Shown one piece after another: positions 15,982-42,683 of a DNA stretch of 64,000 bases (position 1 is its first letter; the number at the start of each line of letters is the position of its first letter). The position numbers and the translations under genes were made by a program. The DNA comes from Deltaproteobacteria bacterium (GTDB taxonomy: Bacteria; Desulfobacterota; Desulfomonilia; UBA1062), in contig JAHDOV010000005.1 in the NCBI GenBank assembly GCA_018434685.1, forward strand, positions 997-64,996, written 5' to 3'. The notes under the pieces were generated by a model. That model worked only from the letters and a program-made list of their open reading frames with translations. It was not told the DNA's origin and ran no database searches.

Positions 15982-15985
15982 TGGA

Positions 15986-23104: not shown

Positions 23105-24022
23105 ATGTCACTGAAACTATCAGTTATCATACCCACTCTGAATGCCGGTAAATATCTCCCGGTCCTGCTTGGGAGGCTTTCTACCCAGACAATTTCTGAT
23201 AAGGAAATAATTATCGTAGATTCGGCATCGGATGATGAAACAGCGGAGGTTGGCCGTTCGTTCGGTGCCTCTGTCAAATCCATAGCTCGAAACGAATTCA
23301 ACCATGGGCGAACCAGGAATATGGCTGCCAGAGATGCTTCAGGTGAATTTCTTGCATTCCTCACACAGGATGCGCTCCCGGTCGATGATCTGATGCTTGA
23401 GAATCTTATAAACCCGATGGAGAGAGATGAAACAATTGCGGTTACGTATGGCAGGCAAATAGCCTATATGCACTCCCGTCCTGTTGAAAGGTTCATCCGC
23501 TCTTTCAATTATCCTGAAGTGAGCAATACCAGGGACACAACAGACATCGAGCACCTCGGGGTCAAGACCTTCTTCTGCAGCAATGCCTGTGCTTCATACA
23601 GGAATGAGACCTTCCGGCGACTCGGCGGCTTCAGGGATGACACCATCATGAACGAGGATATGGAATTGGTCTTCAGGTCTGTAATAGCGGGGCACAGGGT
23701 CCATTATGCCGCGGATGCACAGGTGTGGCATTCCCATGACTATACGCTGAGGGAACAGTTCCGGCGCTACGTGGATATCGGGGTGTTTTTTGCGGATAAC
23801 AGGCGACTGGCACGCTATGCGAGAAATGAGAGCGAGGGAAAGAAATACATCGTGCAGGCCGCTCGGTACTTGATGCAGAACAAAGAGCCACAGGAATTGC
23901 TGCACCTTTTTCTCGACAGCGTTGCGAGGCTTATCGGGTACAGGGTGGGGATTAAATATAAGGCCCTGCCGAGGTCATCGATGAATTACCTGTCGATGAA
24001 CAAAAAATACTGGCTGCCGTAA
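23105..24022 (+). CDS. Glycosyltransferase family 2
   Basis: LSVIIPTLNAGKYL and IIIVDSASDDET (DxD-type region) within a GT-A fold N-terminal half. Confidence 0.8.
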   Translation: MSLKLSVIIPTLNAGKYLPVLLGRLSTQTISDKEIIIVDSASDDETAEVGRSFGASVKSIARNEFNHGRTRNMAARDASGEFLAFLTQDALPVDDLMLENLINPMERDETIAVTYGRQIAYMHSRPVERFIRSFNYPEVSNTRDTTDIEHLGVKTFFCSNACASYRNETFRRLGGFRDDTIMNEDMELVFRSVIAGHRVHYAADAQVWHSHDYTLREQFRRYVDIGVFFADNRRLARYARNESEGKKYIVQAARYLMQNKEPQELLHLFLDSVARLIGYRVGIKYKALPRSSMNYLSMNKKYWLP

Positions 24023-24201: not shown

Positions 24202-25626
24202 ATGAACATGATAAACGGAATCATTAAAAAAGCTTTTCTTTCTCTTACCCTGATTGTCGGCGATATGTTCGCCATTTTTATGAGCTTTGTCACGGCCTTT
24301 TACATCAGGTCATGGCTTCTTGCAGAAGTATTCGGTTTATTCCCGAAGATGATTCATGGCCTCGATGTATACCTGAATGCATGGGTGCTGTTTTCTCTCT
24401 GGCTGCTCATATTTGGTTATGAAGGCCTCTATCCTTCAGTGGGGATGGGATTTTGGGATGAGACGAAATCTCTCCTGAAGGGTAATGGATTGGCCTTTAT
24501 CATCATAATTCTCCTCACGTTCCTCACGAAGACATCGATACAGTACTCCCGGCCGGTAATCTTCCTGGCCTTCATATTGTCAGTTGTCCTTCTGCCGGTC
24601 ATGAGGCGGAGCGCACGGTCTATCCTGAGACATATCGGGTTGTGGCATAAGGATGTTCTCATCGTTGGTTCCTCAGAGACCGTCAAAATCGTGCTCTGCA
24701 ATCTCAAAAAACATCCTGACTGGGGCTTGAAGCCAATGGGAGTGGTCATGCCCGGGAGTCAGAAATCAGGTATTCCAAAGAGCCTCCCGGTTTATGGGGA
24801 TATGGAACATATTCCCTTCAGGGTCGAAGAGGTTATTGTTGCCATGCCGGAGTTATCACGTGCAAAGCTCGTTGAGGTCGTCGAGAATGCCATGAAGATC
24901 GCACCGGTTGTCAAGATGTTGCCCGATCTCTATGGGGTTGTATCCGTAGGGGTCAAGACCTACGACCTGGATGGCATGCTGCTTCTGGAAATGGAAGACA
25001 GGCTGGCGCTGAGAAAAAACGCCTTCATGAAACGTACCTTCGACATTATATGTTCGCTGTCCGCAATACTGTTTCTCTCCCCTTTGTTTGGGCTCATTAT
25101 GGCTCTGATAAGGCTTGATTCTCAGGGGCCCATCTTTTTCGGGCATAAGCGCCTGGGAAAGAGTGGTCGACATTTTACATGTTACAAGTTTCGAACCATG
25201 CTGCCCAATGCCCAAGAGATCCTCGATGAGCTTCTTGAAAATGATCCTGAGGCGAGAGCACAATGGGATAAGGATTTTAAACTGAAAGATGATCCACGGA
25301 TTACGAAAATCGGGCATTTTCTGAGAAAGACAAGCCTCGATGAACTGCCGCAGATCTGGAATGTGCTCAAGGGGGATATGAGTCTGGTGGGGCCGAGACC
25401 CATCGTGGATGAAGAGGTTGAGAGGTATCGCGATAAATCCCGGTATTTTTTCAGGGTAACACCAGGGATAACCGGGCTCTGGCAGGTTTCCGGGCGCAAT
25501 GATGTGGATTACGACGAACGTGTTATCCTCGATGAGTACTATGCAAAGAACTGGTCGCTCTGGCTTGATATTGAGCTCCTGATGCGCACCTTCGGGGCGG
25601 TAGTGAAAAAAAAGGGAGCCTACTGA
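24202..25626 (+). CDS. WbaP-type polyprenyl-phosphate hexose-1-phosphate transferase (large PGT), copy 1
   Basis: N-terminal block of 4-5 TM helices, a central soluble domain, and a C-terminal sugar-transferase domain ([57 protein letters not shown]). It ends in the WbaP-like tail KKGAY. The track ORF begins at TTG 24181. Confidence 0.85.
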   Translation: MNMINGIIKKAFLSLTLIVGDMFAIFMSFVTAFYIRSWLLAEVFGLFPKMIHGLDVYLNAWVLFSLWLLIFGYEGLYPSVGMGFWDETKSLLKGNGLAFIIIILLTFLTKTSIQYSRPVIFLAFILSVVLLPVMRRSARSILRHIGLWHKDVLIVGSSETVKIVLCNLKKHPDWGLKPMGVVMPGSQKSGIPKSLPVYGDMEHIPFRVEEVIVAMPELSRAKLVEVVENAMKIAPVVKMLPDLYGVVSVGVKTYDLDGMLLLEMEDRLALRKNAFMKRTFDIICSLSAILFLSPLFGLIMALIRLDSQGPIFFGHKRLGKSGRHFTCYKFRTMLPNAQEILDELLENDPEARAQWDKDFKLKDDPRITKIGHFLRKTSLDELPQIWNVLKGDMSLVGPRPIVDEEVERYRDKSRYFFRVTPGITGLWQVSGRNDVDYDERVILDEYYAKNWSLWLDIELLMRTFGAVVKKKGAY

Positions 25627-25627
25627 G

Positions 25628-27013
25628 TTGTTGTCACAGACCTTCATGTCTCTGAACAGGAAGATGGAGAACATACCCTCAGGAAAGCTCATGCTGATCG
25701 TGGGTACTGGGGCTTTCCTGGCACTCCTGCCCGCCTGGATAAACTATGACATCATATCGAGGGACGGGGCCTTTCAATATGTACCTGCAGCCAAGGTGTT
25801 TCTCTCGGGTAATTTCCGGGAAGGATTTCTGAGGCCCGAGCTTCCGCTTTTTCCCCTGATCATAGCAGGTATAACAAAACTGACCGGATTCAGTCTTGAG
25901 TTTTCAGGTCGGGTTGCTTCATACCTGGCCTTTGTTCTGGCCGCCATAGGGATGTTCAAGGTGGGCGAGGTTCTTTTCAAGAATCGGGGCATTGCTCTTC
26001 TGGCGGTTTTATTTCTGATTACAAACCGTGAGTTTGTCGATTGTTCCGTGGACTGTCTCAAGGAGGCACTGCTGATTTGCTGTATTCTCTGGGGCAATTA
26101 CCTGATTCTCAAAGGAATCGCTGCTGCAGGAGAGAAACATACATATTATATTCTTGGTACGATAACTTTATTGGCAGGGGCATTATTTCGGAGCACGGCG
26201 CTCGTTTTTCTCTGTGCATGGATTATAATATGGGTATTCTATAAGAAAGAGGAAAGATTTATCCGCGCAGCTTTGTTTCTTATTCCCGTGACGCTTGTGC
26301 TAGTCATATGGGTGATAAATCCAGATCTGCCGATATTCAGGAAGAGTTTCCAGTTCGGGTATTTCTTTATTTCTTCCCATAGTGCCATGGACATATTCAA
26401 ATCCAGTGTGAATGTTATTATGGAATTCTTTTCCAGAGGCAATGCGTTCATTATTCTTTTTGGGTTGTTTGGGCTTTATCACTACACCAGAGACTATTAC
26501 TACATGCATGTATGTCTTGTGTTGGGGATGTTTTTCCTGATTTTAATAATGTGGCTGTTTGCCTCAGGGAGATATTTTCTGGCACCGATCTCCTGGATAT
26601 ATCCCCTTGCTGCGTATGCAGTGGCCCGGACTTTTCGATTAGCATCGAACCCCTTGAAGGCTATTGCATTCCTGACAGTTGTTTCTGCCATTGTCTTATG
26701 GGCTGATGTTGCCTTTACCCCTCCGGATCAGGACAAACTAGCGCGGAAAGATGCTGGTGAGTGGATTCTGGCCAGTCTCGGTCAGGATCAAGAGATTATC
26801 AGCAACAGAGATCGGCTTGTCTTTTATGCCCAGGGAAGCTATATTCCCCTTTCAGATTTTCAGGAGACTGATCTTTTCAGTCGGGTTATTGCAATCGATA
26901 CCATGCTTGAAGACGCCAAGCTTCTTCAGGAGAAGATACGTTCGCGGGGGATTATTCCGGATAAACAGTTTCGGTCCATCTCGGTTTACTTGGCAACTCC
27001 CCCAGGTTCTTGA
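25628..27013 (+). CDS. GT-C-fold (ArnT/PMT_2-like) membrane glycosyltransferase candidate, copy 1
   Basis: About 11 TM helices. The first-loop Asp motif (ISRDGAFQYVP), ELPLFPLIIAG, and a C-terminal ~100-aa soluble domain resemble ArnT/PMT-type GT-C enzymes. It is clearly paralogous to 36847-38748. The start is uncertain (25628 TTG, 25646 or 25664 ATG). Existence of the gene is firmer than the function. Confidence 0.6.
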   Translation: MLSQTFMSLNRKMENIPSGKLMLIVGTGAFLALLPAWINYDIISRDGAFQYVPAAKVFLSGNFREGFLRPELPLFPLIIAGITKLTGFSLEFSGRVASYLAFVLAAIGMFKVGEVLFKNRGIALLAVLFLITNREFVDCSVDCLKEALLICCILWGNYLILKGIAAAGEKHTYYILGTITLLAGALFRSTALVFLCAWIIIWVFYKKEERFIRAALFLIPVTLVLVIWVINPDLPIFRKSFQFGYFFISSHSAMDIFKSSVNVIMEFFSRGNAFIILFGLFGLYHYTRDYYYMHVCLVLGMFFLILIMWLFASGRYFLAPISWIYPLAAYAVARTFRLASNPLKAIAFLTVVSAIVLWADVAFTPPDQDKLARKDAGEWILASLGQDQEIISNRDRLVFYAQGSYIPLSDFQETDLFSRVIAIDTMLEDAKLLQEKIRSRGIIPDKQFRSISVYLATPPGS

Positions 27014-27035
27014 CTAAACAGGGGCTTAATGATAC

Positions 27036-27485
27036 ATGGCTCACTTGGACGACTGCTCTTTGATGAAACTGGCGCTGGAAGAGGCGAGAACCGCAGCCAG
27101 CCTCGGTGAGGTTCCGGTGGGTGCCGTGCTCGTGGCGGGTGATCTTGTCGTAAAGGGTCACAACCGGGTAATCAGTGATGCCGACCCGACTGCACATGCA
27201 GAGATTGTCGTAATGCGCGAGGCCGCACAAAGGATCGGCAACTACCGCCTGGTAGGTGCAAGCCTGTACGTGACCCTGGAGCCGTGTATCATGTGTGTCG
27301 GTGCCATCGTACAGGCTCGGATCCAAAGGCTGGTGTATGCGGTGCAGGATCCCCGGTACGGCGCTGTGGAATCGATGCTGAGGGCATTCGATCTGAACGT
27401 GAACCACAAGCCCGAGATCTGCTCGGGTGTTTTGCACGAGCAGGCAGGCTTATTATTGACGAAATTTTTTCAGGCACGAAGAAAA

Positions 27486-27509
<24 letters not shown>
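27036..27509 (+). CDS. tadA: tRNA-specific adenosine deaminase
   Basis: CDA zinc motifs HAEIVVMREAA and LEPCIMCVGAI, with typical TadA length and termini. Confidence 0.9.
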
Positions 27510-27578
<69 letters not shown>

Positions 27579-27615
27579 TAAAAACATTTACAACAATAAG
27601 TTGAAAGTCTTCTTC

Positions 27616-27636
27616 AGCCGGTAACGGCTTCGTTTT
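27616..27636 (+). terminator. Weak intrinsic-terminator-like hairpin after tRNA-Ser
   Basis: AGCCG-GTAA-CGGCT stem-loop followed by TCGTTTT. The stem is only 5 bp. Confidence 0.3.
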
Positions 27637-27933
27637 ATATCCATAGTCTTTCCTCGAAACCCTCCTGTAACCGTGTCGTAACAATTCCGAGAGCACCACT
27701 TACTCCACTTCTGCATTCACCTGTTGAGCGGCAGAACCTGGGCTGCGACAGGAGGGTGCATGCCCTTTTTGGGGGATTGCCCCGTGATTTCTCTCAGACG
27801 CCTATGCATGGGTGGTTGAACCGGATCACCATATCCTGTAGGATGCCGCCCAGCGTCTGTTCCCGGCAGGACACTGCTGGTGTAGCATTGGGTGTGCGGG
27901 GCAGGCCGGAAAATGAACTGCTAAGGATGTGCT

Positions 27934-28902
27934 TTGTCGCTGGTAAGTGTGATCATTCCTACGTGCAACCGCCTGGAAGAACTGAGGCGCGCCATTGCGA
28001 GCGTACTTGCGGGATCCTACCCGGAGTTTGAGATCCTTGTAGTCAATGACGGTTCAGAGGAACAGCCGGTACAGGATATACTCGAGAGTTTTTGCGATAC
28101 GAGGATCCGTTACCTCAGGAATCAACATTGCAAGGGGTCGAGCGGTGCGCGCAATACCGGCCTGGATAATGCTCTGGGACACTACATTGCCTACCTGGAC
28201 GACGATGATGAGTGGCTGCCCACCAAACTGCAGGCGCAGGTCTCCCGGCTTGAGAGCCTCGATGATTCCTGGGGCGGGTGTTACTGCGGTTATCTCCTGC
28301 GGGAGGGCAAGCACTGGAGGAAGGTCCTGCATCTGCGCCAAGGGAGTTTTCTCAGGAAATTCCTCCTCATAGAGAATTCCATTGGTGCACCCTCCACCCT
28401 CCTCCTCAGGCGCGGGGCTGCCGAAAAGGTCGGCCACTTCAATGAAGACCTGGCGAGACACGAAGACTACCTCTACCTGATCAGGTTCTTCCGCGAGTAC
28501 AGGCTGGCCTTTGTGGATGACATCCTGGCCAGGATTAACGGGCATAATATCCCACGCTCAGTCGACGCTGAAGAGGCAAAAGATAAGCTGTTTCAGCTCA
28601 TACGTGATGATCTGGCCACGCTTGATCCCCGCGACAGGAAGCGGTATTTCGCCCTCCAGTACCGGGAACTTGCCATGCTCTGTGCCGGTGAGCACCAGAC
28701 GGCCAGGAGTATGGCCTATGTACGGAAATCGCTCGGGTCGGCGCTCCTTCCGCCCATCCGGTATGTGAAGATGTTCCTGGCCATTATTGACAGCCTGTTG
28801 CGGATCCACCTTGTTGACCGGTGGGAAGAACTCTCGACATGGGTAAAGATAACCCTATTGGAACGAGGGCAAAACTCGCATAGCGGGTTGCCGAGGGCGT
28901 AG
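27934..28902 (+). CDS. Glycosyltransferase family 2
   Basis: VSVIIPTCNRLEELRRAIASV, ILVVNDGSEE and YLDDDDEW (DxD). TTG start. Confidence 0.8.
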   Translation: MSLVSVIIPTCNRLEELRRAIASVLAGSYPEFEILVVNDGSEEQPVQDILESFCDTRIRYLRNQHCKGSSGARNTGLDNALGHYIAYLDDDDEWLPTKLQAQVSRLESLDDSWGGCYCGYLLREGKHWRKVLHLRQGSFLRKFLLIENSIGAPSTLLLRRGAAEKVGHFNEDLARHEDYLYLIRFFREYRLAFVDDILARINGHNIPRSVDAEEAKDKLFQLIRDDLATLDPRDRKRYFALQYRELAMLCAGEHQTARSMAYVRKSLGSALLPPIRYVKMFLAIIDSLLRIHLVDRWEELSTWVKITLLERGQNSHSGLPRA

Positions 28903-28909
28903 CCATAAC

Positions 28910-30220
28910 ATGCTCGAAAAGATACGATCACGAACGCTTGTCTGGGATACCATCACCACCACGCTCTGGAGCACGCTGGGTAAGGCCGTCGGTTTCCTGA
29001 TCCCGTTCTTTCTGGCCGCATGGTTCGGGGTAAGTGCCGAGACCGATGCGTTCTTCTTCGCCTATGCCTTGATCCTGTTTCTCGCCGAGATCTTCTCCAT
29101 CGTGGTTGAACGGGTCATCGTGCCCTATATCGCTGAATTGCGGGCAAAAGACGGAGACGTGGGCATTTTTGTGGGCAGGATCATGACTGTCAGCGGCATC
29201 GGCCTGGGATGCCTGGCTGCTGTCTTTCTGCTCCTCGTACGACCGCTGCTGCCGGTGATCACTGATTTCGGGGCCGCGAAAATCGGCTTGATCTCTAAGC
29301 TGCTCCTCGAATTCTCCCCCCTGGTGGTACTGCTGGTGTGGACGAGCATCCTCGCGGGGACCATGAATGCCCATAAAAGATTCGCCATCCCGGCTGTATC
29401 CCCCGTGTTTCGGGCCCTGATCAACCTGCTGGTGATCTATCTCATGAAAGACATATGGGGCGTTCATGCGATCGTGTTCGGATATCTCGCCGGTGAGGTA
29501 GTGCGTTTCGGGGTCCTGCTGGGCGTCATACAAAAAACGGGGGTGTGCCGGGTGCGTCTCGACCTGCATCTCGATGACAGGATGCGGAACTTCATCAGGA
29601 CCGCCTCCTACCAGGTGTTCGGCATGGTCGCGGTGGGGATGAATCCGCTTGTCGACAAGACCATGGCCTCCTGGCTGGGGGAGGGGAGTGTTTCCATCCT
29701 TTACTATGCTGACCGGCTCTACATGATCCCTGTCTCATTTATCATATCGGGCCTGATGGTGACGCTGCTCTCGCACTGGAGTGGAAAATTCTACACCAAC
29801 ATGGATGCCGCCAGGCTGAGGAAAGATGTCGGCAAGGCCGTCGGGTTCATCATCTGTCTGACGCTTGCGATGCTGATCGTTCTCGCCGCCGCCAGTCGCC
29901 CCCTGGTGTGGCTGGCATTCGGGGGAGGGGCATTCGACGTGGCCATCCTCGATGAGGTGCGCTGGGTGTGGATCTGTTACCTCCTGGGTTTTGCACCCCA
30001 GATGGTGGGGCGCATCTATATCCAGGCACACCTGACCCTGAAGAACACGATCGACCTCATGCGCAGCGGCATTATGGTGTGTTTCCTGAATGTGGTTTTG
30101 AACTACCTCTTCATGGGCCCCTGGGGTGTACAGGGGATCGCGCTGGCCACAACTCTCACCTCGATATGCTCAATGACCTTCCTGACCATCAGGTTTTACC
30201 GGAAGACTGCCCGGTCGTGA
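28910..30220 (+). CDS. MurJ/MviN-like MOP-family flippase inside a glycan locus
   Basis: About 12-14 TM helices. The N-terminus resembles MurJ (GKAVGFLIPFFLAAWFGVSAETDAFFFAYAL). Confidence 0.7.
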   Translation: MLEKIRSRTLVWDTITTTLWSTLGKAVGFLIPFFLAAWFGVSAETDAFFFAYALILFLAEIFSIVVERVIVPYIAELRAKDGDVGIFVGRIMTVSGIGLGCLAAVFLLLVRPLLPVITDFGAAKIGLISKLLLEFSPLVVLLVWTSILAGTMNAHKRFAIPAVSPVFRALINLLVIYLMKDIWGVHAIVFGYLAGEVVRFGVLLGVIQKTGVCRVRLDLHLDDRMRNFIRTASYQVFGMVAVGMNPLVDKTMASWLGEGSVSILYYADRLYMIPVSFIISGLMVTLLSHWSGKFYTNMDAARLRKDVGKAVGFIICLTLAMLIVLAAASRPLVWLAFGGGAFDVAILDEVRWVWICYLLGFAPQMVGRIYIQAHLTLKNTIDLMRSGIMVCFLNVVLNYLFMGPWGVQGIALATTLTSICSMTFLTIRFYRKTARS

Positions 30221-30551
30221 GATTCGATCCCGGAGCTTTGGATATTAGAGGGGAATATTGACAGAATAGTGCAGTGGGTGCTAGTTCACTGGCTGGCGCT
30301 GCCCTTATAACGTCCGGGCATTTCTTTGGCGGGTTTGGTGATCTCTGAGGTATGACCGGGGCGTTGGGTACAGGCATAATATCTCATCATCGGAAGAAGG
30401 GCAATGAAATGCTGTCTGGGCAAACAGAGAATCTTTGCAGGGTGGTCGTGGCCCTGGACCCATTGTGCGATGTCGGAAGTGCACAGCGGCAATCCTGCCC
30501 ACGATCCCGGTACACCAGTGAGCCTCGTGCTGTGTCAGGAAACCTTCCAGC

Positions 30552-31688
30552 ATGAAAATACTCTTTACCATTCCCTCGCTTGCCGGCGGGGGTGCCGAGA
30601 AGATGCTGATGCAGTTGCTGACACACCTGGACAGACGGAAATTCCAGGTTGAGCTGGCCGTGTTTGATTATTCCGGGAGGTATACCAGCAGCGTGCCTGG
30701 AGATGTCGTGGTCTACGATCTGGAGAAAAAGCGCAGGCACGATATGGTGAGGGCGACGCTGCGTCTGGCAGGGATTCTGCGCCGGGAGTGCCCGGACCTC
30801 ATTGTAAGCTTCCTGCCCTATGCGAGCACCAACACCATTGTCGCCAGGCAGCTGTCACGTACCCATATCCCCATCGTGGTTTGTGAACGCAATGCTCTCT
30901 CGAAAGTCCTCCAGGATGACGCCTGGGGACCATTGAAGGGGTTTCTGATCCGCAGGTACTACCCGCTGGCTGAGGCGGCCATCGCTGTCTCCCGGGGGGT
31001 CAGAGACGATCTCATGCACTACTACCCGTTCCCGGAGAGGGTTGGCGTGATATACAACGGAGCTGATGTACAGGCGATCCAGCGACAGACAGCGGAGCCG
31101 GTTGAACAGCCATGGTTTGATGACCACATCCCGGTGATCATTTCAGCCGGACGCCTCACGGCACAGAAGAATTTTCCCCTGTTGCTGCGGGCCTTTTCCC
31201 GGGTGCGGCAACAGATGGCCGTGAGGCTGGTTATCATGGGAACAGGGGCAGCGCGGCCGCAGTTGGAGACGCTGGCATCCGGGCTCGGAATAGCTTCTGA
31301 TGTGGCCTTCATCGGCTACCGGGATAATCCGTTTGCGTATATGTCGAAGGCGAGCCTGTTTGTGCTGTCCTCCTCGTGGGAGGGATTCGCCAATGTCATT
31401 ATCGAGGCAATGGCGTGCGGAGTCCCGGTCATTGCCACAGACTGCCCTTCCGGTCCTTCGGAAATCATCACGAGCGGCAGGGAAGGAATACTGGTCCCGG
31501 TTGAGGATGTCGACGCCCTTACGAGAGCCATGCTGCAGGTGCTGGAAGACAGCCGGCTCCGGCAGCGGCTTGCAGATTCCGGGCGGAGACGGGCCCATGA
31601 TTTCGACTATCGCACGATGGTTGCTGCATATGAAGGGTTCTTCGTAGATATGATCGAGCGCCGAAACGATGTGGCAAATCTTCCATGA
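30552..31688 (+). CDS. Glycosyltransferase family 4 (GT-B)
   Basis: MKILFTIPSLAGGGAEK N-terminus and the E-x7-E region (SSSWEGFANVIIEAMACGVPVIATDCPSGPSEI). Confidence 0.8.
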   Translation: MKILFTIPSLAGGGAEKMLMQLLTHLDRRKFQVELAVFDYSGRYTSSVPGDVVVYDLEKKRRHDMVRATLRLAGILRRECPDLIVSFLPYASTNTIVARQLSRTHIPIVVCERNALSKVLQDDAWGPLKGFLIRRYYPLAEAAIAVSRGVRDDLMHYYPFPERVGVIYNGADVQAIQRQTAEPVEQPWFDDHIPVIISAGRLTAQKNFPLLLRAFSRVRQQMAVRLVIMGTGAARPQLETLASGLGIASDVAFIGYRDNPFAYMSKASLFVLSSSWEGFANVIIEAMACGVPVIATDCPSGPSEIITSGREGILVPVEDVDALTRAMLQVLEDSRLRQRLADSGRRRAHDFDYRTMVAAYEGFFVDMIERRNDVANLP

Positions 31689-31750
31689 ACGCAGGGAAGA
31701 GAGGATCCGGGGTGGGTGATTTATGCCGGTATCTGCCTCTAGCGCAATAA

Positions 31751-32992
31751 TTGCGAATACGAAAGGAGCGAAGAATATTGTCTGCCGGAAAGATCAGGCC
31801 GCTCATCATCTACCAGATGGATCCACTGGGCAATAAGATCGGTGGGATCCAGACCTTCATAAAGAATTTCATCAAGTATGCCCCGGATGATTTCGAGATT
31901 GAATTCGTCGGGGTGAGTGCCGATACGAGGCGCGCAAAGGTTGGCGCCTGGCAGACCATCGAGATGTATGAGCGGCAGGTGAACTTTCTGCCGGTGCTCT
32001 TCAAGTCGGACGAGAATATCAGGTCGAGAATCCCCCTGAGTATGCAATTCACGGCACAGCTCATGCGCTACCGCCACAGCATAGACCTGCACGACAGGAT
32101 CGTGAATTTCCACCGTATAGAGCCAGGCATTCCGTTTGCCCTTGCACCGTGCAGGAAAGTGCTGGTGGTGCACGGCAACATGACAGACCTGTACAATCCC
32201 GGCACCGAGGTGAAGTGGCGAAGGTTTCCGTGGGCGTACTTCGGGATGGAGAAACTGCTCATGCCGGGCATGAGCAAGGTCTTTGTGGTACGCGAAGACG
32301 GTGCTGCCTTCTACAAGAAGCGCTACCCGAGCCTGGCGGAGCGGTTCTCTTTCCTGCCGACATGGGTCGACGATGCCATGTTCTATCCCCTTGCTGCCCC
32401 GGAGAAGGCAACCGCCAAGGTCGCTTTTCTTCAGCAGCAAGGCCTGCCCGGGGATACGAAGCTCGCGCTGTTCGTGGGGCGCCTTGCCGGTCAGAAAGAC
32501 CCTCTGCTGCTTCTGGATGCATTCTGTGAGCTCCGGAAGCAGGAACCGCAGACCCACCTGCTTATCGTTGGCCAGGGCAATCTGCGTCAGGAAATGGAGG
32601 AGCGACTGCGCCGGTACGGTATGTCAAAGCATGCGGCATTTCTGGGTCCGCTGACGCAGCCAGAGGTGGCCGGCCTCATGAGAATCTGCGATGTCTTTGT
32701 CATGACCTCGGCATTCGAGGGCATGCCCATCAGCGTCCTGGAGGCTCTTGCCTGCGGGCTGCCGGTGGTTTCCACCGATGTGGGCGAGGTCAGGCGGGTC
32801 ATCAGGGATGAATTATCCGGTCTGGTCTGTCACGACCGCATGCCGGATACCATCGGAGGGAATGTGGCGCGGGTGCTGCGGGAAGAGAGATTCTCTGCCC
32901 GAAACTGCACGGCCTCCATCCAGGAGTACACTGCGGGCAAGGTGCTGAACCGGATGTACGCAGCATTCATCTCGCTGGGGGCACGTCCATGA
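31751..32992 (+). CDS. Glycosyltransferase family 4 (GT-B)
   Basis: E-x7-E region (TSAFEGMPISVLEALACGLPVVSTDVGEV). The start is uncertain: 31751 TTG, 31778 TTG after AAGGAG, or 31817 ATG. Confidence 0.75.
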   Translation: MRIRKERRILSAGKIRPLIIYQMDPLGNKIGGIQTFIKNFIKYAPDDFEIEFVGVSADTRRAKVGAWQTIEMYERQVNFLPVLFKSDENIRSRIPLSMQFTAQLMRYRHSIDLHDRIVNFHRIEPGIPFALAPCRKVLVVHGNMTDLYNPGTEVKWRRFPWAYFGMEKLLMPGMSKVFVVREDGAAFYKKRYPSLAERFSFLPTWVDDAMFYPLAAPEKATAKVAFLQQQGLPGDTKLALFVGRLAGQKDPLLLLDAFCELRKQEPQTHLLIVGQGNLRQEMEERLRRYGMSKHAAFLGPLTQPEVAGLMRICDVFVMTSAFEGMPISVLEALACGLPVVSTDVGEVRRVIRDELSGLVCHDRMPDTIGGNVARVLREERFSARNCTASIQEYTAGKVLNRMYAAFISLGARP

Positions 32993-33438
32993 AGATCTGC
33001 CTCGTGTGTTCCTCCGGCGGGCATTTTCTGCAGCTGCATAGCCTGCGTGATTTCTGGGAGCGGCAGGAGCGTTTCTGGGTGACGTTCAGGGGCCGGGATA
33101 CCGAGTCGTTTCTCCAGGGAGAACAGGTCTATTGGGCTCACGAACCCACCAACCGCAATGTGAAGAATCTCATCCGGAATATGCTGCTGGCCGTCAGGCT
33201 CCTTTCCCGCGAACGACCCCGGTCCGTAGTGACCACCGGTGCCGGCGTGGCGGTACCGTTTATCTACGTTGCCAGGACACTACGCATCCGGACCGTGTAC
33301 ATCGAGTCCCTCACCCGGGTGGATAATCTTTCACTGTCAGGCAAACTGGTGTATCCGGTCGTCGATCACCTCCTCGTCCAGTGGCCGGAACTGGCCGCAC
33401 GCTATGGCAAGGCGCTCTATAAAGGACAGGTTCTATGA
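32989..33438 (+). CDS. Alg14-like membrane-anchoring subunit of a split glycosyltransferase (Cps14F/PssD-like)
   Basis: MKICLVCSSGGHFLQLHSL, RFWVTF, TTGAGVAVPF, VYIESLTRV and LLVQWPE match the Cps14F/Alg14 pattern as I remember it. The start overlaps the upstream stop. Confidence 0.75.
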   Translation: MKICLVCSSGGHFLQLHSLRDFWERQERFWVTFRGRDTESFLQGEQVYWAHEPTNRNVKNLIRNMLLAVRLLSRERPRSVVTTGAGVAVPFIYVARTLRIRTVYIESLTRVDNLSLSGKLVYPVVDHLLVQWPELAARYGKALYKGQVL

Positions 33439-33923
33439 TCTTCATCACGGTCGGGACCGAGAAATTCCCGTTCGACAGGTTGCTGCGTGCCGTGGACAGT
33501 GCACTGCTGAAAGGCAAGATCAGCCATACAGTATTCTGCCAGCGGGGGACATCCCGGTATATGCCTGAGCGTTATCCGAGTGTGCCGTTCCTCCCGTTCA
33601 ACGACATGACCCTGCAGATCAGTCAGGCCGACATCGTCATCAGTCATGCGGGAATCGGCTCGACCCTGCTGTGCACCCGTTTGGGAAGAATACCCATTCT
33701 CTTTCCGCGCGATCCTGCGCGGGGCGAACATCTGGACGGACACCAGCTGGAGTTTGCCCGCCGGATAGAGCAGGAGTCCCGGGTCCTGACAGCCTACGAT
33801 GAACAGGAACTCATCGAGAAAATCTGTCATTATGACGAGCTCGTGGGCCGGATGGAATTATCAGGGAGCTCGCGCAGGCCTGAGCTGGTGGAGTTTCTTG
33901 ATGGGTTGCTGGAGGGGGAATGA
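33435..33923 (+). CDS. Alg13-like catalytic subunit of a split glycosyltransferase (Cps14G/PssE-like, GT28 C-terminal domain)
   Basis: MIFITVGTEKFPFDRLL, ISHAGIGS and GEHLDGHQLEFA match the Cps14G/Alg13 pattern. ATGA overlap with the upstream gene. Confidence 0.75.
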   Translation: MIFITVGTEKFPFDRLLRAVDSALLKGKISHTVFCQRGTSRYMPERYPSVPFLPFNDMTLQISQADIVISHAGIGSTLLCTRLGRIPILFPRDPARGEHLDGHQLEFARRIEQESRVLTAYDEQELIEKICHYDELVGRMELSGSSRRPELVEFLDGLLEGE

Positions 33924-35329
33924 CCATACCGTTATCGATCGATTACCGCCTGATGCAGTTCACGCAGTATCCCCGCAGGTGGGTCTTGCCCCTGTTCCTG
34001 CGCCGTAACGGGTCAAGGGCATTGGAGCATTATTCTCTGATGAGGGATCTGCAGTGGGAAGCGCCCGCTGAGATCCGGCGTTACCAGATGGAAGCGTTGT
34101 GTGCCAACTTGCGCCATGCCCTCAGTGTCGTAGCCTACTACCGGAAACTCGGGATGGATCCCGGCTCAGTCACGCCCCGGAACGCGGCTGAGATGCTCCG
34201 GGGCATCCCTGTGCTCACCAAGGCCACGCTGCGTGATCAGTTCCAGAACCTGTCGGCAATCGACCTGGAGCCCGGGGTGCGAACCTTTCTGAATACCTCC
34301 GGTGGTTCCACCGGGGAGCCGGTTCTTTTCATGCAGGACAACATCTACAAAGACTGGCAGGCTGCAGCGATGATGCTGTTCGAGGAGTGGGCCGGGAGAT
34401 CCGTCACCGACCTCGAGATCAAGCTGTGGGGATCGGAAAGGGACATTATCAATGAGAGCGAAGGACTCCGGAAGAGAGCAGGGAATATCATGCGCAACCG
34501 GATCCTGCTGGATGCCTTTCACATGACCGAGCGGGGTATGGTTTCATATGTTGCCACCATCAACACCTGCCGTCCCAGGGTCATTCTGGCCTATGTGGAT
34601 GCTGTCTACGAGTTGGCCCGTTTCATTCGCGATCATGGGCTTGCGGTCGTTTCCCCGGGAGCGGTGATTACCTCGGCCGGCACCCTGTATCCGGAACAGA
34701 GGATGCTGATCGGCGAGGTGTTCGGCTGCCCGGTGTTCGACCAGTACGGTTCGCGGGAGATGGGGCAGATGGCAGGCGATTGTGAGCGCCACGAGGGGCT
34801 GCACCTCAATATGTTCAATAACTATATGGAAATCCTCGACGAGAACGATCAGCCATGTCCCCCTGGGAAGGAGGGGAGGATCGTGGTGACCACCCTGCAC
34901 AACCGCACCATGCCGCTGATCAGGTATGAGATCGGCGACATGGGGATCATGGCGGAAAAGCCCTGCTCCTGTGGACGGGGCCTGCCGATGCTCGAACGGG
35001 TCGTGGGCCGCAGCACGGAAGTGTTCAGGAACAGCCGGGGAGATGTTGTCAGTGGTCATTTTTTCAACAGGCAGCTCTTTTTCAGGACCTTTATCAAGAA
35101 GTTCCAGATAATCCAGGAGAGCCCGAACCACCTGGTCGTGAAGGTGGTGCTCGGCCAGGGAGATGACCTGTTGCGGCACCAGGATGACCTGCGCGATCTG
35201 GAACACAGGTTCCGGTCGGTGATGGGTGACGATGTGCGTGTCGAAGTTATTGCCGTGGAGGCGATAGAGCCCCTTGCTTCGGGGAAATACATCTACACCA
35301 TCTCTAAGGTCGGACGGCAGGTTCCGTGA
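33920..35329 (+). CDS. Second CapK-like adenylate-forming enzyme (PaaK/F390 synthetase family)
   Basis: GIPVLTKATLRDQ, P-loop NTSGGSTGEPVLF, QYGSREMG and RYEIGDMG. The ATG overlaps the upstream TGA. Confidence 0.75.
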   Translation: MTIPLSIDYRLMQFTQYPRRWVLPLFLRRNGSRALEHYSLMRDLQWEAPAEIRRYQMEALCANLRHALSVVAYYRKLGMDPGSVTPRNAAEMLRGIPVLTKATLRDQFQNLSAIDLEPGVRTFLNTSGGSTGEPVLFMQDNIYKDWQAAAMMLFEEWAGRSVTDLEIKLWGSERDIINESEGLRKRAGNIMRNRILLDAFHMTERGMVSYVATINTCRPRVILAYVDAVYELARFIRDHGLAVVSPGAVITSAGTLYPEQRMLIGEVFGCPVFDQYGSREMGQMAGDCERHEGLHLNMFNNYMEILDENDQPCPPGKEGRIVVTTLHNRTMPLIRYEIGDMGIMAEKPCSCGRGLPMLERVVGRSTEVFRNSRGDVVSGHFFNRQLFFRTFIKKFQIIQESPNHLVVKVVLGQGDDLLRHQDDLRDLEHRFRSVMGDDVRVEVIAVEAIEPLASGKYIYTISKVGRQVP

Positions 35330-35410
35330 GGGGTGCGGCGATCCACGGCTTGATCGATCCATGGTGATCGGGTATGGTACCCGGCACCATAACTACAACA
35401 TGAGGGGTAC

Positions 35411-36847
35411 ATGCGGGAACTGAAAAGGCTGCTCTGGGCGATGGTCCTTCTTCTTCTGGATCTGGCAGTACTCTACCTGACCTTCAGTCTGGCGCTGCAG
35501 ATCAGGATGGAGATCCTGCCCAGGATCTCTCCCGACATCTTCACGATCCGCACGATCGTGTTTCTCGACAGGTACTACTGGCTCATCGTGATCTGGCCCA
35601 TCATTTTTCTCTATGAGGGGCTCTACAAGAGACCGATCACCTTCTGGTACGCTGCCTGGAGTATGGTCAAGGCAAACACCGTTGCCATGATCCTCATTCT
35701 CGTGTTCATCTCGCTGACCCAGTCGTGGGATATCTCGCGCAGCGTGGTGGCGCTCACCTGGGGGCTGGGACTGGTGCTGTTTCCTGCCAGCCGGTACGTC
35801 TTCAATCTGCTGGTCTACCACTGGCCCTTGTTCCGCTCGAAGGTGGTGCTCTATGGGGCAGGGCTCACCGGTAAGGCCGTGCTGGAGGGCCTTGCCAAGC
35901 ACCCTGAACTGGGGATGGATATCATTGGTTTCATCGATGATGATCCTGAGCGTGTCGGTAAGGTCGTGGGGAGTTTTCACGGCAGGGATGTCGCGGTGAT
36001 CGGGCACGCCCCGGAATTTCTGGCCGGGCCCAAGGCCCGGGAAGCGGACGAGATCATCATCTCCATCTCGCACATCACCCGCGAGCGGCTGATCAAGGCC
36101 ATGGAGGTGTGCAACGAGGTGGTGGATACCGTCAAATTCATCCCCGACATCTTCGGCACCGCCATCCACAACGCCTCGATCGAGCGCGTGGATACCGCCT
36201 TGATAATGAGTTTCGAGCAGAAGCTCTCCAGACCCTCCAACCGTCTGGTGAAGCGGGTGTTCGACCTTGTGTTCAGCTCCCTTGGTATCGTGATCCTCTC
36301 ACCGTTGTGGCTCGTGGTCTATCTGTCGATCCGGACCGATTCATCGGGACGGGTACTCTTCGAACAGGGCCGGCTGGCTCAGGGCGGTGGAGGCTTCAAT
36401 CTCTACAAGTACCGCAGCATGTATTCCGACGGAGACCGGATCCTGAGTGATCTGCTGGAGAGTTCTCCCACAGCACGTCAGGAATGGGAGACCTACAAGA
36501 AACTCAAGAACGATCCCCGCGTGACCAGGGTGGGGAGGTTTATCCGCAAGTGGAGCATCGATGAGCTGCCCCAGCTCTTCAACGTGTTTTGGGGAGAGAT
36601 GAGCATAGTTGGTCCGCGGCCCTACCTGCCGCGGGAGGTCGATGACATGGGCGGATACAAGGACCTTATTCTCAAGGCCAAACCAGGCATCACGGGGCTG
36701 TGGCAGGTCTCGGGTCGCAACAACCTCACCTTTGAAGACCGACTGCGTCTGGATGCCTTCTATGTCAGAAACTGGTCGCTGTGGGGTGACATCTCGGTGT
36801 TGTTCAAGACCATCCCGGCACTGATAAGGCGTGGAGGGGCGTACTGA
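35411..36847 (+). CDS. WbaP-type polyprenyl-phosphate hexose-1-phosphate transferase (large PGT), copy 2
   Basis: Same architecture as 24202-25626: N-terminal TM block, central domain ([13 protein letters not shown]), then [41 protein letters not shown], and the tail RRGGAY. Confidence 0.85.
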
Positions 36848-38748
36848 TGGGGGCCGGACTGCCGGCTGGAGGGTCCATGATCCGAGCCGGGGGAATGGGG
36901 ATCAGGGCAACGATCGAGAACATGTCACCGGGGCAACTGCTGCTGACGGTGCTCCTGGCCGCGTGCGCCGCGTTAGTGCCGGCATGGCTCAACTACGACA
37001 TCATATCGCGGGACGGTGCCAGCCAGTATATCCCCACGGCCATGCTGTTCTATGAAGGGCGGTTTCTCGCTGCGCTGCAGGAATCGACCCTGCCCCTGTT
37101 TCCCTTTCTGATCGCAGTGGTGGCAAAGGTCACGACCCTGGATTTCGAGACAAGCGGCCGTTTGATTGCGGTCTTCAGCCTCGCGCTCGCTGCAGCGGGC
37201 ATGTACCGTGTCGCGGATGAAATCTATGAGAACCGCTGGGTGTCCCTCCTGGCGGTCCTCTTTCTCGTCACCAACGGTGATCTGGTTATGCGCTCGGTTG
37301 ACTGTCTGAAGGAAAGCCTGCTCGTGTGTTTCATCCTGTGGGGCAACTACTTCATCCTGAGGCAGGGCCGGTCCGGAAGGAAGTGGCTCCACCTCGGCAT
37401 GGGTACGCTGCTTCTGGTCCTCGGCGCCATGGTCAGGAGCACGGCGCTCCTGTTCCTGGGGGCATGGCTGCTCTTGTGGGTGTTCCATAAAAGACAGGGT
37501 ATTGCCGTAAGGATGCTTGTGCCGGCTATCCCGGTCGTTGCCGTGATCGTCCTGTGGCTGGTGGACCCATCGCTGCCGGTTTTCAGAAAAAGCTTCAGCC
37601 TGGGCAAGTTCGTCAATGCATTCCCGGTATTCAGGGTAATGGTGGAGAACATTGCCGGTATCATCGGCACCTTCTTCAAGACCGGAAATCCGCTGCTTAT
37701 CCTTTTGGGGTGCTGGGGGCTGTACGCCTCGCGCAAGAATTCCTACTCGGTACACTGGTGTATCGTGGCAAGCATCTTTTTCCTGTTGCTCGTGAGAATG
37801 CAGTGGACAACAGACCGCTACCTGCTTGCCCTTGTGGTCTGGATGTATCCCCTGGCGGCGTGTACGGCTGTGGAAGTCCTGCAGTCGAAACAGAAGGTGG
37901 GGCGGATTGTTGTGTGGTGTGCCCTCATCTCGGCTGTTGCCGGGTGGGCTGTGACCTCCTTCCGCCCGCCCAGCGACGACAGGGTCGCCCGGCGCGAGGC
38001 AGGGGCCTTTATCCTGGCGGAGCTGGGGCCCGGCCAGAGGGTGATCACGAACCGGGACAGGCTGGCCTTTTATGCCCAGGGCCAAAGCCTGGCACTGGAG
38101 AATATCCTCGTGCTGCCCGATACAGGGGTCTGTTATGCCATCGATACCGAAAAGGAAGGTCTCATCGGGAATCTGGGGTTTGAAACCGGGGGTCTGGCCG
38201 GGTGGATTGTCTCGCGTTACGCCGATTCCACCTACGCGTGCGTCATTGACGAGTCTGAGAAATATATGGGGCGCTCTTCTCTCAGGATGACGCAGCACCA
38301 GCGTCCCGGGAGCCGGGGCGGGCTGGAGTTCGATATCCCGTTTCTCGTCCTTCAGCCGGGAGAGACATACCGGCTTTCAGCCTGGTTTAAGGGCCGGGAT
38401 GTTCAGGGGGGGGCAGCAGGGGTGCGCCAGTTGTGTTTCCTGGTGAAATATGATGGGCAGAAAGAAAATGAGCGGGTCTGGCTGGAGGTGCCGGAAGGCA
38501 CGTACGACTGGACCAGTGTTTGTGCCGGCTTTTCCATCCCCCCGGGTGTTCAGGAGGCGAGACTCTGTCCCGATAAACCCTTGGGGTTCACCGGAACACT
38601 CTGGCTGGATGACGTTCAGCTGGATGGTGGAAATGCTCCTCTGGCCGGGACAGACACGATCCCCCTGCTCATCGATCGGTTGGACGGGATGGGCCGCAGG
38701 CCCGATAAGGTGGTGCGATCCATCTATGTCTACCTCCCACGGTCTTGA
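36847..38748 (+). CDS. GT-C-fold (ArnT/PMT_2-like) membrane protein with an inserted CBM4_9-like jelly-roll domain, copy 2
   Basis: The ATG overlaps the upstream TGA. The membrane part aligns by eye with 25628-27013 (LNYDIISRDGASQYIP, TLPLFPFLIA, RSVDCLKESLLVCFILWGNYFIL, MVRSTALLFLGAW). The extra segment NLGFETGGLAGW...YRLSAWFKG...LWLDDVQLDG resembles carbohydrate-binding module 4_9. The true start may be an internal Met (36892 or 36922). Confidence 0.6.
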   Translation: MGAGLPAGGSMIRAGGMGIRATIENMSPGQLLLTVLLAACAALVPAWLNYDIISRDGASQYIPTAMLFYEGRFLAALQESTLPLFPFLIAVVAKVTTLDFETSGRLIAVFSLALAAAGMYRVADEIYENRWVSLLAVLFLVTNGDLVMRSVDCLKESLLVCFILWGNYFILRQGRSGRKWLHLGMGTLLLVLGAMVRSTALLFLGAWLLLWVFHKRQGIAVRMLVPAIPVVAVIVLWLVDPSLPVFRKSFSLGKFVNAFPVFRVMVENIAGIIGTFFKTGNPLLILLGCWGLYASRKNSYSVHWCIVASIFFLLLVRMQWTTDRYLLALVVWMYPLAACTAVEVLQSKQKVGRIVVWCALISAVAGWAVTSFRPPSDDRVARREAGAFILAELGPGQRVITNRDRLAFYAQGQSLALENILVLPDTGVCYAIDTEKEGLIGNLGFETGGLAGWIVSRYADSTYACVIDESEKYMGRSSLRMTQHQRPGSRGGLEFDIPFLVLQPGETYRLSAWFKGRDVQGGAAGVRQLCFLVKYDGQKENERVWLEVPEGTYDWTSVCAGFSIPPGVQEARLCPDKPLGFTGTLWLDDVQLDGGNAPLAGTDTIPLLIDRLDGMGRRPDKVVRSIYVYLPRS

Positions 38749-38892
38749 CGAGAGATACCACAGCTGCAGAAATCGTCTTTGATGTGAGTATCCCTGAAAG
38801 GGGCGTATCACAATGTTTTCATGCCGGGACAGGCCCCGCGGGAACGACAGGAAGGAGGTGAGCACACGTGCAGGTGCTGCTTGATGACCCAC

Positions 38893-39183
38893 TTACTTCC
38901 CCTTGGGTTTTCCGTTTTTTTCGTCTGTCATATCCACGATCCACTCGTATTCGGTCACCTCGATCTTTTTCCTGGTCTCCACCTGTTTTACCGGGACCTT
39001 TTTCCTCGAGATCTGATAGAGAGCGCCTTCTCCGGAATAGTTCTTCAATGCCTCATCCAGGGTCTTGTAGATCTCTATCTTCTGGGTGCCGAACAGCGAT
39101 TCCCTGATGATGGCATATTCCTCCGCAGGTGTGACACCGGCCCATACCAGGATGACGAGTGCAGTGAGCAGAATTCTTTTCAT
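38893..39183 (-). CDS. Small secreted protein (96 aa), function unknown
   Basis: Signal peptide MKRILLTALVILVWAGVTPA and a lysine-rich tail. A GAGGTGGGGA RBS-like stretch lies upstream on the minus strand. I recognise no family motif. Confidence 0.5.
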   Translation of the reverse strand: MKRILLTALVILVWAGVTPAEEYAIIRESLFGTQKIEIYKTLDEALKNYSGEGALYQISRKKVPVKQVETRKKIEVTEYEWIVDMTDEKNGKPKGK

Positions 39184-39441
39184 GACATCCCCACCTCATC
39201 TCTCTTTGTTTGGTATTTTCGCCTTGTTGTCAACCATGAGCTTTAAAAACCATGATATTTGAGCGGTATACCCCTGCCAGGAGCGTGCTCATGTTCCTCA
39301 TCGCAATCCTTTTGGCATTTACATTGTTTTTGCTTTATGTTACTTCACGAATACTTTTTTGCATCATCTCGCAGCAATTGTGCGAGCGCTGTGCCGATAG
39401 AGAAATACAAGGAGATGCGCTATCTCCGGTAGATAGATAAT

Positions 39442-39534
39442 GGAGAGATGCCCGAGTGGCCGAAGGGGCGCGACTGGAAATCGCGTGTATCGTCAAAAGC
39501 GGTACCGAGGGTTCGAATCCCTCTCTCTCCGCCA
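39442..39534 (+). tRNA. tRNA-Ser (anticodon GGA), encoded CCA
   Basis: A 93-nt cloverleaf: acceptor GGAGAGA/TCTCTCC, anticodon stem CGCGA/TCGCG with loop CTGGAAA, a long variable arm, and T-arm GGTTCGAATCC. Confidence 0.9.
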
Positions 39535-42483: not shown

Positions 42484-42683
42484 GAATCTCTCATCCTTGC
42501 CTGATCTTCATGCATGCCTGTTGAAATCCGTCCAATTATTAAAGGGGAGGAGAATAATCCTGGCTAGGTATAGCGCGATGCCTGCGGGTCGATTCGTCGG
42601 TCATTCCTTGAGGAAACGAAATTCATTTTGCCTTGATAGGATTAGTGGATTATTAATATAGCAATGGCTTGGGGAGGTCGGAG

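Follow-up and report, generated by a model that had tools for sequence, protein, structure and literature searches.

The closest described counterparts of the gene pair examined here are found among the GT-C-fold membrane glycosyltransferases and among the enzymes that take glycans from undecaprenyl diphosphate (Und-PP) at the periplasmic face. The pair consists of a gene for a predicted WbaP-type phosphoglycosyl transferase (PGT), followed at the 3' end of a glycan-assembly operon by a gene for a predicted GT-C-fold membrane protein, here called X. It occurs twice, as pairs A and B, in a stretch of 64,000 nucleotides from a Deltaproteobacteria bacterium (contig JAHDOV010000005.1 of assembly GCA_018434685.1, positions 997 to 64,996), hereafter the window.

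The pgl operon of Campylobacter encodes a PGT, GT4 enzymes, a GT2, a flippase and a GT-C oligosaccharyltransferase, and its composition is paralleled by that of the X operons. STT3, PglB and AglB (GT66) resemble X in that STT3B gives the best Foldseek E-value for X-A and that STT3A is the sole Protein Data Bank (PDB) sequence matched by the profile of a sister family of X; X itself, however, matches no STT3 model at curated thresholds. ArnT (GT83) and the PMT_2/PMT enzymes (GT39) share with X a GT-C fold of about 13 helices, followed at the C terminus by a small soluble α/β domain. Most sister-family proteins lie above the PMT_2 threshold and ArnT has the best TM-score for X-A, but neither X-A nor X-B is matched by the PMT_2 or PMT models, no ArnC-like synthase or ArnE/F lies nearby, and X is tied to a WbaP-type PGT, which would make a diphosphate-linked (PP-linked) rather than a monophosphate-linked (P-linked) sugar. 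The job proposed below for X would be like that of WaaL, PglL and Wzy, namely to take an Und-PP-glycan at the periplasmic face; X differs from them in having neither a Wzy_C domain nor a structural match, and the glycan locus closed by pair A (locus A) encodes separate Wzy_C proteins.

The three- or four-component periplasmic glycosylation systems (GtrA/GtrB/Gtr*, GacI-L and the GT136 enzyme ORF12) provide examples of a GT-C enzyme inside a surface-glycan locus, and of a carbohydrate-binding module (CBM) on a GT-C enzyme as in X-B; in ORF12 of Citrobacter youngae this module binds the acceptor polysaccharide (PMC11127046). The X loci, in contrast, encode in cis neither the lipid-P-sugar synthase that defines these systems nor a dedicated flippase, small or of the MATE type, and the PGT is the conserved partner. 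The lactococcal GT-C proteins WpsJ and WpsH, compared with X by description only, have a suggested role in the transfer or polymerisation of an entire lipid-linked glycan, which WpsJ would move to another glycan, and are conserved across strains with variable glycans (PMC10821137). WpsJ offers a proposed precedent for en bloc transfer, although its donor has a monophosphate carrier link and is started by the GT2 pair WpsA/B instead of a PGT, in a Gram-positive host.

Two paralogous gene pairs

All four open reading frames (ORFs) lie on the plus strand, where the first-pass annotation of the window had placed them. Pair A comprises PGT-A, a predicted WbaP-type polyprenyl-phosphate hexose-1-phosphate transferase (24202–25626, alternative start 24181), and X-A, placed by its structure model and family alignment in an unnamed subfamily of GT-C-fold membrane glycosyltransferases related to PMT_2 (25628–27013, alternative start 25646). 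Pair B comprises PGT-B, a WbaP-type PGT of a second clade judging from profile score and identity to relatives (35411–36847), and X-B (36847–38748), a paralogue of X-A with a CBM insertion, whose membrane core is modelled with confidence. Between X-A (461 aa) and X-B (633 aa) the identity is 43% across 432 aa (E 2e-111), and between PGT-A and PGT-B it is 36% across 426 aa (E 2e-94). The segments 24202–27013 and 35411–38748 are thus genuine paralogous pairs, and identities this low rule out a recent duplication.

PGT-A and PGT-B reach 505.9 and 411.4 bits, respectively, with TIGR03022, the NCBIfam WbaP subfamily model (cutoff 403). Both carry an N-terminal bundle of transmembrane (TM) segments, a CoA_binding_3 domain and a C-terminal Bac_transf domain (7.7e-69 in PGT-A), and their translations both end in GAY, as first noticed. 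With regard to a specificity for UDP-galactose, they stay below the cutoff of the Escherichia coli/Salmonella equivalog WbaP models. PGT-B is 55–56% identical to the PGTs of two relatives' loci (L030 and L031; such numbers denote loci of relatives throughout) and 76% identical over 176 C-terminal residues to that of L014. On these sequence features both enzymes are classed as WbaP-type large monotopic PGTs. A fourth PGT gene of the window (52094–53449; 451 aa, Bac_transf 3.6e-69) stands alone among housekeeping genes, with no GT-C gene after it.

The two genes of each pair are closely joined. The 1-nt spacer originally described for pair A applies if X-A starts at the TTG at 25628, preceded by GGGAG at a distance of 10 nt; with the ATG at 25646, the start in the database gene call, the spacer is 19 nt. 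The junction of pair B, taken at first for an ATGA overlap, is in fact TGATG, a stop/start overlap of 1 nt, and GGAGG lies about 8 nt upstream of the X-B start.

A small GT-C subfamily linked to WbaP-type transferases

The AlphaFold2 (AF2) model of X-A, built on the family alignment, has a pLDDT of 91.2 and a pTM of 0.90 and shows about 13 membrane helices by helix count, followed by a C-terminal α/β domain of about 100 aa. When it was compared with the PDB by Foldseek, all 18 matches at E≤1e-3 were GT-C enzymes, with STT3B best by E-value (1.7e-6) and ArnT, at 2.3e-6, giving the best TM-scores (0.64/0.56). PglB, AglB, ALG9/12, DPY19 and Pmt4 were also matched, and AftB, AftD, Emb and Pmt1/2 came just after the E 1e-3 limit, with no WaaL, Wzy or SEDS protein among the PDB matches. 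The model thus places X in the GT-C fold superfamily (GT-C_A class), and the expectation that the downstream proteins are GT-C enzymes and not of the Wzy/WaaL type is borne out by it.

At the sequence level, X-A has no Pfam or NCBIfam match at a meaningful level, neither protein is matched by PMT_2 (PF13231) or PMT (PF02366) at E≤1, and Pfam finds no Wzy_C domain in either. The library matches of X-B are limited to a CBM_4_9 insert, a sub-threshold EpsG match (18.9 bits against a cutoff of 30.1, E 9e-4) and weak similarity to the LA_3751/LA_3752 family. A reading of X as a Wzy/EpsG protein was rejected on this sub-threshold match of X-B and the missing structural match to Wzy, WaaL or SEDS. 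The CBM_4_9 module (38161–38565; Pfam 36 bits, cutoff 25.9) lies inside the C-terminal soluble domain of X-B as an insert of 135 aa (aa 439–573), beta-rich in the AF2 model at a pLDDT below 50. It is missing from all 41 other proteins found with X-B, which have 437–519 aa.

Searches of 5.8 billion clustered proteins recovered 58 relatives for X-A and 42 for X-B, nearly all unnamed and coming from metagenomes or from metagenome-assembled genomes (MAGs) of the Deltaproteobacteria/Syntrophaceae type; the nearest homologues of X-B are 49–51% identical to it. Within that collection the X family, a GT-C subfamily without a name, is small and numbers about 70 sequences. Against 1.84 billion representatives, its profile retrieved about 20 full-length members above 340 bits, then dropped sharply to 181 bits or less, where a further 1,869 proteins form a tail down to E≤1e-3. 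The PMT_2 threshold is passed by 9 of 10 proteins tested from this tail, the sister group, and weak PMT_2 matches (E<0.01) occur in 4 of 33 members of the X family itself. The profile search sets X beside PMT_2 proteins, while the two window proteins themselves stay outside the PMT_2/PMT models: X is a divergent relative of PMT_2, not a formal member, and forms an unnamed ArnT/PMT_2-like GT-C subfamily. In databases its members are labelled "hypothetical", and those of the sister family carry generic "ArnT family" or "GT39" labels.

All the motifs first quoted for the X proteins are present, most of them in invariant or near-invariant columns of the 33-member family alignment. More than 30 columns are invariant, and among them are acidic and basic residues where GT-C enzymes typically have them. 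Shared by the X family and the sister group are DGAFQY(I/V)P, S(V/A)D(V/C)LKE, SGRY and a C-terminal domain with DK..RK.AG.W and R.AYYA; the S-x-D-x-L-K-E motif is invariant in the X alignment. D40 of NYDIISRDGA, just after TM1, is invariant in both families, and D35 in the X family only (X-A residues, D40, D136 and E140 among them, are numbered from the 25646 start). In the orientation that we infer, this conserved acidic residue would lie in the first extracytoplasmic loop. The sister-family profile matches STT3A at E 6e-4 and aligns the LKE motif to YDNEG of STT3A (the DNE metal site), a weak alignment that is offset by a residue or two. The X profile finds nothing meaningful among PDB sequences at E≤10, and a match of a mixed X and sister profile to MCR-1 was judged to be due to chance.

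We then consider the neighbourhood of these genes. In the X family, sampled as 24 clusters at 80% identity of which 22 were informative, a WbaP-type PGT lies directly upstream of X in eight clusters and 0.3–6.4 kb upstream in another eight, with O-acetylation-like or methyltransferase genes intervening. Five loci (L017, L019, L021, L028 and L034) have, between PGT and X and directly upstream of the latter, two genes for proteins of about 471 aa (5–6 TM segments) and about 319 aa (one TM segment), which resemble an MBOAT/AlgJ-type O-acetylation pair by size and topology. The sister family, which supplies the decisive test of the linkage, was sampled from metagenome contigs by GT-C motifs only, regardless of neighbours (51 clusters, 44 informative). 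A WbaP-type PGT of about 468 aa, with CoA_binding_3 and Bac_transf, is found directly upstream in 29 of the 44, at gaps of −4 to +150 nt, and within 2.5 kb in 7 more. These loci do not adjoin tadA, the usual neighbour of X. In two of them (L065, 4101–5969, and L069, 4110–5975) the gene directly before the GT-C gene encodes, in place of a PGT, a membrane protein of about 620 aa that has TPR repeats and bears a CBM60 module at its C terminus.

The identity between GT-C proteins (18–78%) correlates with that between their PGTs (25–93%) over 33 adjacent pairs, with r 0.87 and a Mantel p of about 0.001. This would fit an enzyme that cleaves the PP bond, since the PGT fixes the reducing-end sugar that such an enzyme must recognise. 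The adjacency of PGT and GT-C genes is thus general and deeply conserved. The linkage supposed from the window recurs in the X family and its sister family, in many uncultured bacteria, and the downstream proteins score neither as ordinary Wzy polymerases nor as membrane proteins other than glycosyltransferases, the outcomes that the first-pass annotation had named as fatal to its proposal.

Operon content and candidate roles of X

The pair had been described as a minimal two-enzyme module, which does not hold: it always closes an operon with 2–4 cytoplasmic GT4/GT2 glycosyltransferases and sometimes a Wzx/MurJ-type flippase, the typical order being the GT4/GT2 genes, the PGT and, at the 3' end, the GT-C gene. 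The gene before the PGT nearly always encodes a glycosyltransferase, either a GT4 of about 370 aa, whose gene runs 7 nt into that of the PGT, or a GT2 of about 305 aa related to GT2_A of locus A (23105–24022). The latter is a frequent third partner: orthologues at 57–71% identity stand directly before PGT and X in L001, L003, L007–10 and L028, and relatives at 43–45% occur in sister-family loci. Additional genes for GT4/GT2 enzymes and for sugar-nucleotide synthesis often occur, and Wzx is found in L090, the window and some X-family loci. With glycosyltransferases always preceding the pair, the PGT is most simply seen as the initiator of a whole oligosaccharide.

No other ORF with at least 8 TM segments appears in most loci when 6 kb upstream are scanned, and no other multi-TM Wzy_C-like gene is found in cis in locus B (the glycan locus closed by pair B), L022, L099, L112, L120, L072 or L077, so that X is the sole in-cis candidate for a post-flipping step there. 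Neither is an ArnC/GtrB/DPM1-like synthase or a GtrA-like or ArnE/F-type flippase present in any locus, those of the window included, that was annotated with Pfam or NCBIfam; no polyprenyl-P-sugar synthase thus lies alongside the pair there. GT2_A and GT2_B were rejected as GtrB/ArnC-type Und-P-sugar synthases, as they have no TM segment and no such NCBIfam match; GacI/WpsA-type synthases also lack a TM segment, so that this feature alone is not decisive (PMC10821137). X is present once per glycan locus: two copies occur in the window and two in L007/9/10, and two MAGs have X in two separate loci each.

On these grounds each pair would be the conserved 3' end of a Wzx-type operon for lipid-carrier glycan assembly. 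The WbaP-type PGT would load a hexose-1-phosphate onto undecaprenyl phosphate at the cytoplasmic face, the upstream GT2/GT4 enzymes would lengthen the product to a short oligosaccharide, and the flippase would carry it to the periplasmic face. There X would cleave the sugar-1-PP-undecaprenyl bond and move the glycan to a periplasmic acceptor, in the manner of an oligosaccharyltransferase or a ligase; another glycan, lipid A-core and protein are candidate acceptors. For X-B, the CBM suggests a glycan acceptor, by analogy with GT136 ORF12, EmbC and AftD (PMC11127046). We give this role of X, that of a terminal transferase acting in the periplasm on the Und-PP-glycan which its partner PGT has started, a probability of roughly 45%. 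It is favoured by the conserved junction with the PGT, by the lack of any other in-cis candidate for the step after flipping and of a P-sugar synthase, by the presence of one X per glycan locus, and by structural and sequence signals that are both STT3-like and ArnT-like. The donor, the acceptor and the periplasmic side of the conserved motifs are all parts of it that we infer.

Several points speak against a terminal transferase. To our knowledge, all characterised ArnT/PMT enzymes use polyprenyl-monophosphate monosaccharides and not PP-linked glycans. X lacks the WWDYG motif of the STT3 type, neither X-A nor X-B matching W[WY]D[YFW]G, and its C-terminal domain has about 100 aa in place of a periplasmic domain of more than 250 aa. 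No PGT–GT-C fusion is seen among the 150 best X relatives. No PGT is seen upstream in 6 of the 22 informative X-family clusters, where X follows a PglF-like gene or Wzz, or in 8 of the 44 of the sister family. The identity of X correlates with that of DnaX and S58 (r 0.77–0.83) about as well as with that of the PGT (r 0.70), and the linkage within the X family could therefore be due to synteny alone; the GT-C/PGT correlation described above may likewise reflect shared phylogeny only. Wzy_C and Wzz proteins, which could polymerise or ligate the glycan, are also encoded in locus A, L003 and L013/L037. For the lactococcal CsdC/D system the donor synthase is encoded elsewhere in the genome, which may apply to X as well (PMC10821137).

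In the main rival, X is a classical decorator of the ArnT/Gtr type that adds a single sugar, taken from an Und-P-monosaccharide made by a GT2 synthase in trans, to a finished glycan or lipid A-core, its adjacency to the PGT merely marking the serotype-independent 3' end of variable glycan loci. The nearest sequence relatives of X are PMT_2 proteins with generic ArnT family/GT39 labels and a known ArnT/PMT chemistry, the best TM-score is that of ArnT, the strongest synteny of the X family is with tadA and dnaX and not with the PGT, and some loci already have Wzy_C and Wzz. GT-C enzymes bearing a CBM are, moreover, known as post-polymerisation decorators (PMC11127046), and the donor synthases of such systems can sit outside the locus (PMC10821137). 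A decorator is nevertheless somewhat unlikely. The annotated loci have neither a polyprenyl-P-sugar synthase nor a small flippase, GT2_A and GT2_B have no ArnC/GtrB/DPM1 match, and many operons would be left with no in-cis enzyme after flipping. Furthermore, the tight and often overlapping PGT–GT-C junction is kept in the sister family, where tadA synteny is absent, down to a GT-C identity of 18%.

X could also be a GT-C-fold polymerase that joins Und-PP repeat units in place of Wzy. Many operons do have glycosyltransferases, a PGT and X but no Wzy-like gene, X-B has the weak EpsG match (E 9e-4, below cutoff), and GT-C-fold polymerases have been proposed in lactococci (PMC10821137). We consider it improbable, as X is conserved at 35–63% identity while the upstream glycosyltransferase sets vary (GT2_A versus three GT4s, and others), which is atypical for polymerases specific to a repeat unit. 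The mapped sister-family loci have no Wzz/PCP gene, X is retained in loci with Wzy_C and Wzz, and it has no structural likeness to Wzy, WaaL or SEDS. That the pairing is meaningless, X being either a membrane protein of some unrelated kind or a GT-C relic that has lost its activity, without a curated family match and held in place by strong synteny within one lineage, is very improbable given more than 30 invariant columns with acidic and basic residues at GT-C-typical positions, an adjacency that recurs in the sister family in other genomic surroundings, and a separate X copy in each glycan locus.

Returning to the terminal transferase, a wider proposal is that X and its sister family form an unrecognised class of bacterial oligosaccharyltransferases or ligases, with an ArnT/PMT-like scaffold and PglB/WaaL-like en bloc transfer of the Und-PP-oligosaccharide, primed by the co-transcribed WbaP-type PGT, to protein, lipid or glycan, encoded in a compact operon of glycosyltransferases, PGT and GT-C that is widespread in uncultured Desulfobacterota and beyond. 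We put this forward as tentative and, at present, doubtful.

Genomic setting and significance

Each X gene is followed closely by a tRNA-Ser gene, as first reported: tRNA-Ser(CGA) begins 473 nt after X-A (27486–27578) and tRNA-Ser(GGA) 694 nt after X-B (39442–39534), both on the plus strand and identified with ARAGORN and Rfam. The first of these gaps is not empty, being occupied by tadA (27036–27509, plus strand; NCBIfam TadA 156 bits, cutoff 150), the tRNA adenosine deaminase gene that comes after X in most X-family loci. At its 3' end, tadA runs 24 nt into the start of tRNA-Ser(CGA), and an overlapping or abutting junction is likewise present in L001, L003, L005 and L007. Where an X homologue is present, in 29 GTDB loci and several metagenome contigs, the genes usually come in the order X, tadA, tRNA-Ser(CGA), tRNA-Ser(GGA), dnaX and S58; relatives also have ffs, the small SRP RNA gene, ahead of dnaX. 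The proximity to tRNA-Ser, taken at first as a feature of the cassette itself, thus reflects this conserved synteny together with an insertion hotspot.

The two tRNA-Ser genes are 8–250 nt apart in 13 relatives. Others have 1.2–4.1 kb of unrelated cargo between them: integrases in L003, a toxin–antitoxin pair and methyltransferases in L007/L036, and an MBOAT gene in L016/L037, which in L037 follows tadA and is confirmed by Pfam. That of the window, at 11.86 kb, holds all of locus B. The interval is thus an insertion hotspot in this lineage, noticed in the window and in L003, L007, L009, L010, L015 and L016. Since the tRNA-Ser genes normally adjoin in relatives, the ancestral position is that of pair A, and pair B was brought in by the 11.9-kb insertion, bordered by tRNA-Ser(CGA) on the left and tRNA-Ser(GGA) on the right. 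Neither an integrase in locus B nor a tadA remnant after X-B was found. A classical tRNA-integrated island with att repeats was rejected, the only repeat being the homologous tRNA-Ser 3' ends.

The strong compositional difference first seen between the pairs is real, although the values are 47.1% GC for A and 58.9% for B instead of 48% and 62%. Low GC is common in exchangeable surface-glycan loci, and it is locus A that is the outlier (44–47%), with locus B at 57.8% and tadA, dnaX and the right flank at 55–57%. Independent acquisition, as initially argued from composition, therefore stands in that the pairs are old paralogues with separate histories and B was inserted; its compositional argument is reversed, pair B matching the surrounding genome.

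The part of locus A at 19.9–27.0 kb is ordered Wzx, Wzy_C, GT2, PGT-A and X-A, all on the plus strand. The Wzx-type flippase (19899–21317; Pfam Polysacc_synt 1.1e-38, weak NCBIfam Wzx_EPS) is the first gene of this sub-locus A2 and is 53% identical to its L003 counterpart. The Wzy_C-domain membrane protein (21364–23040; 558 aa, Pfam Wzy_C 2e-16, weak TfpM), of polymerase, ligase or O-oligosaccharyltransferase type, is 50% identical to its L003 homologue. GT2_A has a Pfam Glycos_transf_2 domain, and it is followed by the pair. Locus B spans 27.9–38.7 kb and ends in PGT-B and X-B; its biosynthetic genes (27934–35329, plus strand), assigned with Pfam and NCBIfam, encode a GT2, a MurJ-like flippase, a GT4, a GT1, Alg14-like and Alg13-like proteins and an adenylate-forming enzyme, and neither library reveals a Wzy-, Wzz- or WaaL-like gene among them.

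After X-B and shortly before tRNA-Ser(GGA), the minus strand encodes a small protein of secreted type (38893–39183; 96 aa, signal-peptide-like N terminus), without family assignment, which has tblastn matches at 53–67% identity in L007, L009, L010, L015 and L016; orf141 (38821–39246, plus strand) was rejected as a gene for overlapping this conserved ORF. Between tRNA-Ser(GGA) and dnaX lies the gene of the small SRP RNA, ffs (39553–39651, plus strand; Rfam RF00169, 71 bits). The conserved right flank begins with dnaX (39703–41250, plus strand; Pfam; 57–75% identity in relatives), followed by peptidase S58 and a tRNA-Met.

Elsewhere in the window, positions 1–19627 hold a Wzx/Wzy locus of very low GC (38–45%), in which two Wzz-like genes are accompanied by UDP-glucose dehydrogenase, PGA_cap, GNAT and deacetylase genes. 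It also contains a small PglC-like PGT and PglD/E/F-like genes, and this gene set suggests a bacillosamine-type reducing-end sugar. Adenylate-forming enzymes (DVU_1553 family/PaaK/F390-synthetase-like) are encoded once per glycan locus, at 10320–11696 and 33920–35329, and may serve acyl or amino-acid decoration of the glycans. Downstream of tRNA-Met, the region 42669–47849 looks like an alpha-glucan metabolism cluster, with two adjacent GH57 genes, one of them with amylase/4-alpha-glucanotransferase C-terminal domains, and then a GalT/HIT-like gene.

GT-C enzymes in glycan loci are already known, and the X subfamily is unnamed and uncharacterised. We found no description of a conserved operon end made of a WbaP-type PGT and a PMT_2-like/ArnT-like GT-C protein in full-text searches of the literature or in a neighbourhood paper on the PGT superfamily, and the recurring pair may point to a final step in glycan assembly that has yet to be described. 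On a conservative reading, a tight and deeply conserved PGT-to-GT-C operon end and a small unnamed GT-C subfamily still stand, and the tandem cassettes of the window are explained by a glycan locus landing in a tRNA-Ser/tRNA-Ser hotspot. If the GT-C protein does use a PP-linked glycan, it would be of a kind wanted as a glycoengineering tool and would represent a third structural solution for the final transfer in Wzx-type pathways, beside STT3/PglB and WaaL/PglL. The line that textbooks draw between ArnT/PMT-type enzymes, with their P-linked monosaccharide donors, and STT3-type enzymes, which use PP-linked glycans, would then be less sharp.

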